From the sequence record PQ850614.1: DNA of 64,000 bases; one strand, given 5' to 3'. The notes beneath the pieces are model-generated. The model was not told the DNA's origin. It ran no database searches and saw only the letters and a program-made list of their open reading frames with translations. Shown piece after piece: positions 26,742-32,478 of the stretch. The translations under genes and the position numbers were made by a program. Positions within the stretch are counted from its first letter, which is position 1. Each line of letters opens with the position of its first letter. Source of the DNA: Escherichia phage LorandFenyves_Bas91.

Positions 26742-27026
26742 TCAACCTCTTGGGAATGGCATCAAAAATTCCACAGCAGATTTAATTTCACTATTGATTC
26801 TTGAATCACGATAAGAGATAAACTTACCTTTGCTATCACGTAACATCACATGAGTTCTGGCTGTTTTGTGAGGGAGTAGTGTGACACTAGTTGGGATAGT
26901 ATCAATCCCTACAGCGTATTTGTCAATAGTCTTACTTTCAGCCAACAGATAAGACCAAGTACGCGGTTTCTTCTCCGGGCGGTTGGGGTATGTGTCTCGA
27001 ATCTGTACCATAGCTAACTTATTCAT
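26742..27026 (-). CDS. hypothetical protein (tandem paralogue of the next gene)
   Basis: Shares ...TART.V.LR...GKFISY...FPxG with 27028-27282. Confidence 0.45.
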   Translation of the reverse strand: MNKLAMVQIRDTYPNRPEKKPRTWSYLLAESKTIDKYAVGIDTIPTSVTLLPHKTARTHVMLRDSKGKFISYRDSRINSEIKSAVEFLMPFPRG

Positions 27027-27027
27027 A

Positions 27028-27282
27028 TTAAACTCCTTTAGGGAATGGAATGAGATTTTCTACTGCAACACGGAAAGATTTTTCTACGTTCTTATTCTTA
27101 TAAGAGATAAATTTTCCATCAGCTCCGCGAAGGAGTACGTTAGTGCGAGCTGTTTTTGGGTTAATCTCAATCATCCGTTCGATGATCTTGTTTGATTTGT
27201 TGTGGTGGTTAGTGAAAGTCCACTTAACAACCTTGCCATCTCTGGTTACATCAAAAATATTTACGATTTTTACAATAGACAT
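27028..27282 (-). CDS. hypothetical protein (tandem paralogue)
   Basis: See 26742-27026. Confidence 0.45.
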   Translation of the reverse strand: MSIVKIVNIFDVTRDGKVVKWTFTNHHNKSNKIIERMIEINPKTARTNVLLRGADGKFISYKNKNVEKSFRVAVENLIPFPKGV

Positions 27283-27350
27283 ACTTATTACCTAGGAAGT
27301 TTAGTTTGGTTTATATAAAAGAAAAGGCCACCCATTTGGGTAGCCTTATA

Positions 27351-27668
27351 TTACGATGAGCTTAAAGCTCCTTTGCGTGCTCCAGCTGCTTTTCCAGCTC
27401 GATCACCACTTTTGCCGCCGTTTGAACGGTTTGAGCTGACTGATTCAACACGTAAGTTGCTTGACGCATTAGAGCCTCCAGACTTGACAGCTCGTTTGTG
27501 TCCAACGTCTTTACCTCTGACAGCAGCTTTTCCATCGCGCTTTTCAACGATGCGACGTGCACGGTGGCGCTGAGCATCTCCGCTCTTGCTCCCAACGCCT
27601 GTCTCACCACGGGCAATTGCGGTACGTCTTTCTTGTGCATAATCTCTCTTTCCTACATGGTCTGCCAT
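27351..27668 (-). CDS. basic G/K/R/S-rich low-complexity protein (possible nucleic-acid binder)
   Basis: AAGGAG RBS 7 nt upstream; TAATGTATA motif ~40 nt upstream; chosen over the overlapping alternative frame 27362-27640. Confidence 0.5.
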   Translation of the reverse strand: MADHVGKRDYAQERRTAIARGETGVGSKSGDAQRHRARRIVEKRDGKAAVRGKDVGHKRAVKSGGSNASSNLRVESVSSNRSNGGKSGDRAGKAAGARKGALSSS

Positions 27669-27704
27669 TTAGAACTCCTTAATATATCAGTGTACACTAA
27701 GGAG

Positions 27705-27713
27705 TATACATTA
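27705..27713 (-). promoter_or_regulatory. TAATGTATA motif
   Basis: Exact 9-mer on the minus strand ~40 nt upstream of the 27668 start. Confidence 0.5.
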
Positions 27714-27724
27714 TAAGTTACTGT

Positions 27725-28462
27725 TTAAGCTTTCTTTTCCATTGCTTTAACAATCGCCTTACAGAAACCAGAACGAACAATATCATCCGATTCACCGTCT
27801 ACAATCTCAGCAAACTCATACAGATCATGTTCATCAATAAAGTTGGTAGCCCAAGTAAGACCACTCTCACGACCACGCATATCATGCTGGTTAGTATCAC
27901 CCATGCAGAACAGCTGAGAGGTTTCTCCCAATCGAGTCATGATTGAGAAGGCTTCATCTTTAGTGGTGTTCTGGAACTCATCAACAATAACAATAGCATC
28001 ATTGAAAGAACGACCACGGAGATATTCCAGAGGTACGAACTCAATGTTGCTATTACCAAGTTGGCATTCATAGAACCCCTTACCATATCGCTGAGTGATA
28101 ACATCAATGATAGGCATCAGGTATGGTTCAAACTTCTCACGCATTCCTCCCGGAAGTAACCCAAGAGAGTTGCCCATGCCAACCGAAGGGCGACTCAGAA
28201 TGATCTTCTGAATCTTACCACTCTTCAGTGCATCAATAACCGTGGAAGTGATTACAAAGGTCTTACCACAGCCCGCAGGAGCGTCTGTGAACACAACTTG
28301 TTTAGTCTTAATAGCATTGAGTAGCTCAGACTGAAACTGGTTCTGAGGGACTACAGGCTTTGCTAAAAGCACCTCTTCATACTCTCGCTTACCTTTACGA
28401 GTAACAAGTGCTTCCCGACGAAGGTCTTTCCGTGATTCTTTCCGTGATTGACGACGACTCAT
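27725..28462 (-). CDS. phoH: PhoH-like ATPase
   Basis: Walker A APAGCGKTF; LSRPSVGMGNSLGLLPGG; VIVDEFQNTT...GDTNQHD match PhoH conserved blocks. Confidence 0.8.
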   Translation of the reverse strand: MSRRQSRKESRKDLRREALVTRKGKREYEEVLLAKPVVPQNQFQSELLNAIKTKQVVFTDAPAGCGKTFVITSTVIDALKSGKIQKIILSRPSVGMGNSLGLLPGGMREKFEPYLMPIIDVITQRYGKGFYECQLGNSNIEFVPLEYLRGRSFNDAIVIVDEFQNTTKDEAFSIMTRLGETSQLFCMGDTNQHDMRGRESGLTWATNFIDEHDLYEFAEIVDGESDDIVRSGFCKAIVKAMEKKA

Positions 28463-28644
28463 TTACGCTCTCCAATTTCTTCGTAATGACACTCAGTAGT
28501 TAAGCAGTCTTTACAGATTGCTGTATAAACCCTGACGTTAGTAAATCGTTTATTCTTCCCTTTGGTTGGAGAGCCTTTGGCAAGCTCTCTGATAACCTTG
28601 TTACTTAAATGAAGGTTTGTTCCTTCACATCTAGAGCACTTCAT
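28459..28644 (-). CDS. small zinc-ribbon protein
   Basis: CxxC...CxxC spacing in 61 aa. Confidence 0.4.
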   Translation of the reverse strand: MKCSRCEGTNLHLSNKVIRELAKGSPTKGKNKRFTNVRVYTAICKDCLTTECHYEEIGERK

Positions 28645-30664: not shown

Positions 30665-30844
30665 TTATGCGGTCAGGAGGTGAAGCAGGAACGGGATAAC
30701 AACAGCTACGATAACCATGATAGTTGATGCTGTTTGAATCTCACCTTTCTTATCAGGAGTTTCTTCAATAAGCTTACCAGAAGCCCAATAAATACCACCA
30801 CCAATAAAGATAGCCCAAATACCCCATACGATTGCTGATAACAT
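30665..30844 (-). CDS. small two-TMD membrane protein (59 aa)
   Basis: AAGGA RBS; two hydrophobic helices; preferred over the overlapping alternative-frame ORF 30706-30978. Confidence 0.35.
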   Translation of the reverse strand: MLSAIVWGIWAIFIGGGIYWASGKLIEETPDKKGEIQTASTIMVIVAVVIPFLLHLLTA

Positions 30845-30904
30845 ATATCTATATCCTTATAAATAAGTTCGCCCCACCTCGGGTTAGGAGACAGGGCGGA
30901 GGTT

Positions 30905-31516
30905 TTAGTAAGACACATCACCACTTGAATGGGACATGTTGCTCTTGACGAAGTAGCAATACTTGCCAAGACCTTCATTAATTTCTTGAAGCATACTCTG
31001 ATCGACAGGGTAAGTGGCTAAATCGCCATCAAACTCATCCATCTTCTCAATAATACACATCAAGGTCATGCACATATCAGAGAGCATACCGTCCATGTCT
31101 AGATCAGCATTACCCTCTGAGAACCAAGCATGAGAGAGGTAGTTAGCTGCTGTAGCATCCACTTTAACACAGTGATAACGCATACGTTCAGCAATACGAT
31201 CTCCTACTTGTCGTGCGTAATTTTCCAACTCATCAAACATACCATGAACACCCTGAAATCCTGCACCAGAGACATTCCAGTGGTAGTTTTTAGCTTTGAT
31301 ATGCAAGAGTTCCATATTAGCTTGTAAGCAGCTCAGGATGTGTTCTAGGCTGTTTCCGCTAATCATACCCTGCATCGTTTCAAGGCGAGAGATTGAAAGC
31401 TCTGACCGATCTAACATATTATAGTCGGCACGACCAATATCAGGTAAATCAAAGACATTCTTATGCATTTGGGTTTTCTCCATCAAGTTCAACTGAGTTA
31501 GCAACGTTACGTGCAA
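30905..31516 (-). CDS. Dps-like (ferritin-superfamily) protein
   Basis: KNYHWNVSGAGFQGVHGMFDE...DRIAERM and C-terminal YFVKSNM parallel Dps conserved blocks; exact start uncertain. Confidence 0.55.
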   Translation of the reverse strand: MHVTLLTQLNLMEKTQMHKNVFDLPDIGRADYNMLDRSELSISRLETMQGMISGNSLEHILSCLQANMELLHIKAKNYHWNVSGAGFQGVHGMFDELENYARQVGDRIAERMRYHCVKVDATAANYLSHAWFSEGNADLDMDGMLSDMCMTLMCIIEKMDEFDGDLATYPVDQSMLQEINEGLGKYCYFVKSNMSHSSGDVSY

Positions 31517-31790
31517 TATTATCCATTACCTGCTGGGTAATTACGATGCAGTTCTGTGGGTCTACTGACTTAGAACGCCCCATTTCAGGGTCATACACCT
31601 TAACTCGCTTAGCAGTTGAACCTGTAACCTGAAGAACCTTCAACAGATATCCCTGATTACCAATAGACCAAGCAACAACATCACGATTCTTGATAAAGCG
31701 ACCAAGCATATCACGATGATAAAACTGTTGCATCACCTTGGATTTTGTAATCTCTTCAGTGGGCGGGGCCACTTTACTCAAATCTAACAT
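31461..31790 (-). CDS. hypothetical protein
   Basis: 109-aa ORF with an AAATGTATA motif ~40 nt upstream. Confidence 0.45.
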   Translation of the reverse strand: MLDLSKVAPPTEEITKSKVMQQFYHRDMLGRFIKNRDVVAWSIGNQGYLLKVLQVTGSTAKRVKVYDPEMGRSKSVDPQNCIVITQQVMDNIARNVANSVELDGENPNA

Positions 31791-31829
31791 AACTCTCTCC
31801 TGTAAAATACAAATTCTTATTGTACTCTA

Positions 31830-31838
31830 TATACATTT
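31830..31838 (-). promoter_or_regulatory. AAATGTATA motif (8/9 match to TAATGTATA)
   Basis: About 40 nt upstream of the 31790 start, the same spacing as at 27705. Confidence 0.4.
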
Positions 31839-31862
31839 GAGAGTTATCATATCTACTACCAA

Positions 31863-32072
31863 TCAGTAGTAAATTACTTTAGACATAAAAGAACCAGTGT
31901 TAGGGTCTTCATACCAGCGATGTATGTCAGCGCTTTTTACTATTGTGCCCAGAGTCTTCAACTGTTTCTTAGCAATACGAGCCTCTTTGCGAGTGTCAAA
32001 CAATTTGATGTTATCTTTTCTCATGTGTTGCTCAAGATCCCAAACAACATGAATAGCCCACATCTTTTTCAT
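31863..32072 (-). CDS. small protein, member of a tandem triad
   Basis: Three adjacent 65-69-aa ORFs share ...TR.EAR..KK... and a C-terminal Y-[YH]-Y. Confidence 0.45.
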   Translation of the reverse strand: MKKMWAIHVVWDLEQHMRKDNIKLFDTRKEARIAKKQLKTLGTIVKSADIHRWYEDPNTGSFMSKVIYY

Positions 32073-32281
32073 TAGTAATGTACCTTTCCGCTGATATAAA
32101 CACGACCAGAAGAATACTCCTTGGCCTTATGGATGCTGATACTGTTGACCACGTCACCAGTAAGCATAGTCTTTTTAAAATCTCGAGCTTGTTGGCGAGT
32201 GGGTAGTGCAGTCATAGTCATGCCACCTGATGCCCACTTAATCTTTGCTAACCAAAATTGTCTCATAGTGATCGGTCTCAT
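32072..32281 (-). CDS. small protein, member of a tandem triad
   Basis: See 31863-32072. Confidence 0.45.
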   Translation of the reverse strand: MRPITMRQFWLAKIKWASGGMTMTALPTRQQARDFKKTMLTGDVVNSISIHKAKEYSSGRVYISGKVHY

Positions 32282-32478
32282 TAATAATAAACCTTACTGT
32301 TGGCAATAAAAGCACCTTCGCTATTCACAATAGCTTTTCCAATTGTAACCTTGTTAAGCCTAAAAGTAGACTTGTATTGATTTTTGACCCTACGTGCGTG
32401 TTCTCGAGTCTTAACAAAATCTACAGCTACTAACTCTCCAGTCGTGTTATCATGTACACGAACAATCCACTTTTTCAT
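32281..32478 (-). CDS. small protein, member of a tandem triad
   Basis: See 31863-32072. Confidence 0.45.
   Translation of the reverse strand: MKKWIVRVHDNTTGELVAVDFVKTREHARRVKNQYKSTFRLNKVTIGKAIVNSEGAFIANSKVYY

Follow-up and report, generated by a model that had tools for sequence, protein, structure and literature searches.

Three sets of tandem small genes

We analyzed a 64,000-nucleotide stretch of the genome of Escherichia phage LorandFenyves_Bas91 (sequence record PQ850614.1), hereafter the window, for three sets of small adjacent genes: family A (A1 to A3), family B (B1 and B2) and the Cys/His trio (C1 to C3). All eight genes lie on the minus strand, which carries nearly every gene of the window from about 16 kb to 62 kb. 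A sequence-only reading of the window had taken the three sets for recent local tandem duplications, divergent under selection on host-interaction functions. A megablast search with positions 26300-33020, which include families A and B, matched 99 phage records, all of them Gordonclarkvirinae (Kuravirus and relatives, such as phiEco32, SU10, Paul, ES17 and others). The top match was Escherichia phage vB_EcoP-CHD5UKE1, with 98.7% identity across 100% of the query, and the open reading frames (ORFs) of the window are annotated likewise in that record. Judging from these matches, the window belongs to a Kuravirus, an E. coli podophage of the phiEco32/SU10 type. The region runs from just upstream of the DNA polymerase gene through the PhoH, ThyX, thioredoxin, Dps-like and dCTP deaminase genes, in the same order as genes 53-72 of phiEco32.

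Family A is made up of A1 (31863..32072; 69 aa), A2 (32072..32281; 69 aa, or 64 aa from the ATG at 32266) and A3 (32281..32478; 65 aa), which correspond to phiEco32 gp69, gp70 and gp71, respectively. All three are members of phrog_4939 (E = 1.7e-28, 6.8e-28 and 2.1e-27), with matches that cover the 67 positions of the profile. The pairwise BLASTP comparisons of the trio are weak if taken alone (E = 3e-5, 4e-5 and 0.16; 25-28% identity). The proposed relationship holds through the shared PHROG family (E~1e-28), but the common ending quoted in its support, Y-[YH]-Y, was incorrect, the actual pattern being [IV]-[YH]-Y (IYY, VHY and VYY). Across 56 homologues of the family, W4, T24-R25, A28-R29, K32 and the terminal tyrosine are invariant. 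Residual DNA similarity among the three genes is in register, at about 206-239 nt. The stop codon of A3 overlaps the start codon of A2 by one base (TAATG), as does that of A2 the start of A1, and the genes are probably translationally coupled through these overlaps.

The family B genes, B1 (26742..27026; 94 aa) and B2 (27028..27282; 84 aa), are orthologues of phiEco32 gp56 and SU10 gp53 and of phiEco32 gp57 and SU10 gp54, respectively, and both belong to phrog_6814 (E = 5.1e-36 and 3.1e-36). Their similarity to each other is evident by BLASTP (E = 1e-15), with 22 of the final 41 residues identical (54%), and the motif on which the pair had been matched, KTART.V.LR...GKFISY...PFP.G, is present in both proteins exactly as quoted. 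Residual DNA similarity is in register here as well, with a spacing of 289 nt. The two genes are one base apart, and a strong ribosome-binding site, AAAGGAG, lies upstream of B1. In an alignment of 53 homologues, the N-terminal half of B2 was variable and the C-terminal half nearly invariant. The orthologue in SU10, CDS54, was listed among the least conserved middle genes of that phage, with 66% identity to phiEco32 (PMC4281155). The orthologue of B2 in NC_070989.1 is labelled 'autotransporter adhesin', a doubtful annotation; its family is of unknown function in PHROGs.

The Cys/His trio consists of C1 (51537..51746; 69 aa; phrog_13426), C2 (51755..51919; 54 aa; phrog_8294, E = 9.8e-18) and C3 (51929..52090; 53 aa; phrog_8294, E = 6.5e-25 when scored as 51929-52093). 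The starts assigned in the sequence-only reading, 51788 and 52150, are TTG codons of the longest ORFs; homologues start at the internal ATGs at 51746 and 52090. C2 and C3 are clear paralogs by BLASTP (E = 8e-13), and for them the proposed relationship stood. C1 is only weakly related to the other two (E = 3e-4 and 2e-3) and, scored as 51537-51788, did not match the phrog_8294 family hidden Markov model (HMM). It retains the [C/H]-x-H-[ED]-W ... C-K-x-C pattern common to C2 and C3, which looks like a small zinc-binding module. In-register DNA similarity remains among the three genes at about 171-206 nt. Two HNH homing-endonuclease genes are found on the minus strand of the window, one directly downstream of the trio (51080-51502) and another at 21671-22153; in relatives, HNH insertions occur elsewhere in the replication module.

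The expression class of families A and B can be approached through better-studied relatives. In SU10, coding sequences (CDS) 69-125 are early and CDS 25-68 are middle, and tAATGTATAtA is the promoter motif of the phage sigma factor in both phiEco32 and SU10 (PMC4281155). Promoters dependent on this factor, gp36, were mapped in phiEco32 5' of genes 6, 13, 26, 40, 58 and 68 (PMC8948821). The gp36-type motif AATGTATA occurs on the minus strand of the window at 27705..27712, between PhoH and the gp58-like gene, which is the position of phiEco32 P58. A second copy, on the same strand at 31830..31837, falls into the gap of 72 nt that follows A1. This site corresponds to phiEco32 P68, and the motif there probably marks the boundary between early and middle genes. 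A consensus scan found a terminator-like GC-rich hairpin followed by a T-run immediately upstream of B2 (27324..27347, minus strand), and a terminator is annotated at the equivalent place in SU7. Synteny with the phiEco32 and SU10 promoters and expression classes suggests that A3-A2-A1 are the final genes of an early sigma70 unit, right after the nucleotidyltransferase and dCTP deaminase genes, and that B2-B1 are middle genes, downstream of P58, the gp58-like gene and the putative terminator. Directly downstream of B2-B1 are a 140-aa ORFan and then the DNA polymerase gene.

By sequence, the genes of families A and B are the known hypothetical genes for gp56/57 and gp69-71 of phiEco32, with orthologues in about 98 GenBank Gordonclarkvirinae genomes. 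PHROGs lists phrog_4939, phrog_6814, phrog_8294 and phrog_13426 under unknown function and already groups the paralogs. The window proteins are full-length, high-scoring members of these families (E between 1e-18 and 1e-37) and do not differ from them. Thus, the finding is already known and largely ordinary: the genes stand as 'hypothetical' in about 100 public genomes, with their paralogs grouped beforehand. No publication on these genes individually, on their paralogy or on their lineage structure was found in the literature searched. What our comparison adds is a subfamily-wide orthology map of the copies, in which the duplications are ancient rather than recent and copies have been gained, lost or replaced near homing-endonuclease insertions, together with a division of B2 into a fast-evolving and a constrained half.

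Age and copy number of the paralogs

The homologous region was taken from 13 related genomes, all ORFs were searched with the family HMMs, and neighbor-joining trees were built from the matches. The family A tree contained four orthologous lineages, namely the tandem copies A1, A2 and A3 and a fourth copy located between ThyX and thioredoxin, and the family B tree contained two. The same paralog lineages occur in phiEco32, SU10, Paul, ES17 and Bas89. Orthologues of A1, A2, B1 and B2 were also found in Suseptimavirus SU7 and ECBP2, and these duplications therefore predate the split between Kuravirus and Suseptimavirus. The fourth copy, likewise a member of phrog_4939 (E = 3e-21), is present in Paul (L012:5440-5649), EcoN5 (L015:9066-9275), ECBP2 (L017:9281-9496) and three IMG/VR genomes (L005:5698-5907, L006:6068-6277 and L007:5279-5488). 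The window does not have it, and the gap between ThyX and thioredoxin is only 15 nt there.

Adjacent, size-matched copies in tandem orientation, with DNA similarity still in register, might be taken for recent local duplications that are diverging under positive selection. Such remnants are, however, to be expected from tandem duplications that have eroded. Between paralogs, synonymous differences amount to a proportion (pS) of 0.64-0.73, close to saturation, and amino acid identity is 25-36%. At this level, ratios of nonsynonymous to synonymous substitution (dN/dS) between paralogs are meaningless, and the copies must be old. Also against a recent origin, the copies cluster by positional lineage across genera rather than by genome, with A1, A2, B1 and B2 extending to SU7 and ECBP2, and dN/dS between orthologues is below 1. 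A recent origin is thereby refuted, and we give it next to no chance. Tandem duplication followed by divergence is itself borne out for all three sets by BLASTP, PHROG membership and the in-register DNA similarity; the pairwise alignments were significant for the B pair and for C2 and C3, and the A trio was joined through phrog_4939. We regard it as nearly certain that the duplications predate the diversification of Kuravirus and that some lineages later lost copies or had them replaced.

The number of copies differs among the genomes. Four family A copies are found in Paul and in two of the IMG/VR genomes (L005 and L006), three in the window, SU10, phiEco32, EcoN5, Bas89 and ECBP2, two in ES17, SU7 and the remaining IMG/VR genome (L007), and one in an uncultured relative of 90 kb that is more distant. 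Most genomes have two copies of family B; Bas89 (B2 only) and distant relatives have one. The family HMM search of related genomes found no A3 in ES17, EcoN5, SU7, ECBP2 or L007. The Kuravirus genomes without A3 (ES17, EcoN5 and L007) carry a divergent allele of the dCTP deaminase gene (59% identity), and in ES17 and EcoN5 an HNH endonuclease gene is inserted beside it. This arrangement points to replacement through recombination around homing-endonuclease sites. Bas89 has the same divergent allele and the HNH insertion, yet it has retained a diverged A3.

Gene content between A3 and the dCTP deaminase gene also varies in other genomes: SU10 (L002:8013-8219), Paul (L012:7738-7944) and Ptacy1532 have an extra 68-aa ORF there, a member of phrog_2347. 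In ES17 (L014:6024-6959) and EcoN5, the place of A3 next to the 59% identical dCTP deaminase allele is taken by the HNH endonuclease gene and two unrelated small ORFs. Farther afield, single divergent copies are carried by the uncultured relatives IMGVR_UViG_3300031419_000013 (L009/L010; 90.4 kb) and L011 (82.4 kb). Family B occurs in L009/L010 and in L011, and family A (E = 5e-5) in L010. The DNA polymerase of L009/L010 is about 73% identical to that of Gordonclarkvirinae, and the family-A-like gene directly follows the polymerase gene, an order unlike that of Kuravirus.

Selection on families A and B

To measure selection, we calculated dN/dS by the Nei-Gojobori method for orthologue pairs with usable dS. 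The values were 0.29 for A1, 0.25 for A2, 0.27 for A3, 0.21 for B1 and 0.29 for B2. Among neighboring genes, they were 0.04 for dCTP deaminase, 0.05 for PhoH, 0.06 for the gp68-like gene, 0.07 for the Dps-like gene, 0.09 for ThyX and 0.13 for thioredoxin. At the protein level, the genes of both families thus evolve three to six times faster than the neighboring enzymes. Across Kuravirus, the amino acid identity of A and B proteins falls to 60-75% (range, 60-99%), whereas that of the neighbors remains at 95-100%. Within B2, dN/dS was 0.42 for residues 2-42 and 0.075 for residues 43-84, and a few single pairs exceeded 1 in the N-terminal half.

No gene or region had an overall dN/dS above 1 among the orthologue pairs; positive selection is therefore not demonstrated. 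The suggestion of selection on host-interaction functions was not borne out in this respect, ratios of 0.21-0.29 being those of purifying selection. An explanation by spurious ORFs was rejected, because orthologues are conserved with dN/dS far below 1. The A and B ORFs are real genes under purifying selection, with a constraint much weaker than that on the surrounding enzymes. Their fast evolution and variable copy number are compatible with an accessory role in host interaction without proving one.

Predicted folds and possible functions

AlphaFold2, run with the family alignments, predicted a β-β-α-β-β domain for A3, with a predicted local distance difference test score (pLDDT) of 81.3 and a predicted template modeling score (pTM) of 0.65. 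For B2, the prediction was β-β-α-β-(β)-α with a floppy PFPKG tail (pLDDT 84.6; pTM 0.73). When BFVD was searched by fold with the family A model, only the family's own lineages matched convincingly, with template modeling (TM) scores of 0.71-0.85, and different family A lineages superposed at TM 0.71-0.72. These matches lend independent support to the paralogy. On a helical wheel, R25, A28, R29 and K32 of family A would share one face of the single helix; the C-terminal hairpin of the family is lineage-specific. All eight proteins of the three sets are basic, those of families A and B with isoelectric points (pI) of 9.8-10.4 and net charges of +6 to +9. These values rule against the DNA-mimic type of anti-restriction protein (Ocr/ArdA), for which there was no structural match either.

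Neither the A nor the B model had a Foldseek match in the PDB at E ≤ 0.001. Non-significant matches of the family A model included the core of PsaD, a photosystem I subunit (TMq ~0.5, E~0.06; PDB), and Microviridae 'DNA binding' or 'nonstructural' proteins (TMq 0.52-0.60, E = 0.04-0.07; BFVD), whose contexts are unrelated. The likeness is of a β-sheet-plus-helix kind with 10-20% identity, in other words a common small fold only. Family B gave equally non-significant PDB matches to deaminases (cytidine deaminase), the Dpo4 little finger, Dmd and p56, at TM 0.33-0.42. Searched by sequence, the PDB returned chance-level matches only, Pfam and NCBIfam returned no family for the A and B proteins, and PADLOC no match below E = 0.02. 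What we take to be the DUF2188 (PF09954) pattern, W.V...G....f.T..eA...A....l.iHg.dG.i...PPkG, resembles the family A motif and the family B C terminus, and the β-β-α-β-β topology would suit it as well, but the Pfam scans did not support this likeness. With HMMER, neither 20 members of the A and B families nor the family consensus sequences matched PF09954 at E up to 10, and none of 21 remote family A clusters (see below) was linked to it. Descent of families A and B from one ancestor, which their similar β-β-α-β topology might suggest, was also rejected (hhalign probability, 0.07%).

The 21 clusters are those that the family A profile matched at E ≤ 0.001 when HMMER was run exhaustively against 1.84 billion cluster representatives. 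In twenty of them the proteins measure 65-79 aa and carry the family motif, and the remaining match, of 648 aa, is a spurious one to a low-complexity repeat protein. A word-indexed search of 5.8 billion proteins recovered 92 family A and 87 family B sequences; the long contigs with matches to either family are phage genomes of about 77 kb. By tblastn, both families were found in 98 phage records, all from Escherichia or Shigella phages. An IMG/VR scan with family B gave seven loci, and no family B relative was found in bacterial and archaeal genomes. As far as these searches reach, families A and B appear to be restricted to lytic Gordonclarkvirinae coliphages.

Their small size, single domain, strong positive charge and lack of catalytic motifs suggest that these proteins are non-enzymatic binding modules, and the conserved basic helix face of family A and the invariant hairpin-helix-tail of family B point in the same direction. 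We propose that each A and B protein would be one strongly basic β-β-α-β-β module of this kind. In family A, the invariant T-R-x-x-A-R-x-x-K face of the helix would form a common binding surface, with specificity set by the C-terminal hairpin of each lineage. The family B proteins would be anchored to a conserved partner by their C-terminal hairpin-helix-PFPKG tail, which is nearly invariant, and the fast-evolving N-terminal half would face something variable. The paralogs would be subfunctionalised and not redundant. The ligand may be nucleic acid, either DNA or RNA and of the phage or the host, with the proteins acting as accessory factors in the early/middle program of nucleotide metabolism and replication. 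We give this reading a probability of roughly 0.4.

Several observations weigh against nucleic-acid binding. The searches of Pfam and the PDB linked the proteins to no DNA- or RNA-binding family at a significant level, whether by structure or by profile, and the case for such a ligand draws on charge and on weak, non-significant 'DNA binding protein' neighbors. Basic charge by itself says little, because small phage proteins of this kind can also bind host proteins that are acidic. The AlphaFold2 models (pLDDT 81-85) came from shallow alignments of low diversity. The variation in copy number, moreover, shows that some backgrounds can do without individual copies.

Tandem multigene families of small early ORFans devoted to host takeover are known from lytic phages, among them the SPO1 host-takeover module and the early clusters of T4 and T5. 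The A and B genes are like these in being small, taxon-restricted, early or middle, packed, copy-variable and faster evolving than the core; unlike them, they had no sequence or structural relation to any characterized member that we could find. The main rival reading is that they encode inhibitors which bind host proteins in the service of takeover or anti-defence, with the paralogs aimed at different host factors or defence variants; it is the host-interaction idea of the sequence-only reading without the recent origin, and we consider it possible though rather unlikely. Such a role would suit small early/middle ORFans confined to one phage subfamily, with variable copy number, alleles far more divergent than the flanking core genes and dN/dS three to six times that of their neighbors, up to 0.42 in the N-terminal half of B2 with single pairs above 1. 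Gordonclarkvirinae are reported to resist restriction-modification systems remarkably well, through no known inhibitor, and family A lies directly downstream of the dCTP deaminase and nucleotidyltransferase genes discussed in that context (PMC11990801). Yet dN/dS nowhere exceeds 1 overall, every lineage has been conserved over the long term, and their strong positive charge sets the proteins apart from the acidic DNA mimics that inhibit restriction. No defence-related family was matched in the PADLOC, Pfam and PDB searches, and the literature searched contained no experimental link. It is very improbable that one or both families account for the unusual ability of Gordonclarkvirinae to withstand restriction-modification and most other defences. 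In that case, these small basic early/middle proteins would either coat or label the DNA of the phage or block a nuclease of the host, different variants of the host would be dealt with by different paralogs, and the hypervariable N-terminal half of B2 would be an arms-race surface.

The tandem paralogs might also be subunits of one hetero-oligomeric complex, coupled for equimolar output. The one-base TAATG overlaps of A3/A2 and A2/A1 and the single base between B2 and B1 would fit such an arrangement, and each paralog lineage is conserved, as non-interchangeable subunits would be. Tight packing with overlapping genes is, however, the rule throughout the genome of the window, and the fourth family A lineage lies about 1.5-2 kb away from the others in Paul, EcoN5 and ECBP2. 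Relatives have one, two or four family A copies in varied combinations, and Bas89 has B2 without B1. An obligate hetero-complex is unlikely because copy number varies, and we hold this explanation to be improbable. Nucleic-acid binding remains the reading that we prefer. Should a function be found, families A and B would be novel families of small, phage-specific binding proteins, from a group of phages that is in therapeutic use and of whose early biology and resistance to restriction little is understood.

Paralogy is not special to these loci, and the window has other paralogous sets, the two HNH endonuclease genes among them. Adjacent genes at 7612-8664 and 8677-9645 (plus strand) encode paralogs of 350 and 322 aa (31% identity over 275 aa; E = 1e-10), both in phrog_4287, 'DNA ejection protein'. 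A dispersed family of small early paralogs lies on the minus strand at 50108-50329, 53299-53517 and 53987-54250; two of its members belong to phrog_6570 (E~1e-32) and the third to the linked phrog_16423. The gp58-like region (27351-27668, minus strand) contains two long ORFs of the same strand that overlap in different frames, one of 105 aa, rich in Arg, Gly and Ser, and one of 92 aa; the former is in the frame annotated in relatives. The Dps-like protein (30905-31516) is labelled 'integrase' in several records and assigned to the Dps family in the annotation of phiEco32. A perfect sigma70 consensus promoter (TTGACA, a 17-nt spacer and TATAAT with the extended -10 TG; 12/12 matches) is present on the minus strand at 26244-26272. 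It lies no more than 60 nt into the DNA polymerase ORF (24455-26299), and transcription from it would begin inside the gene.

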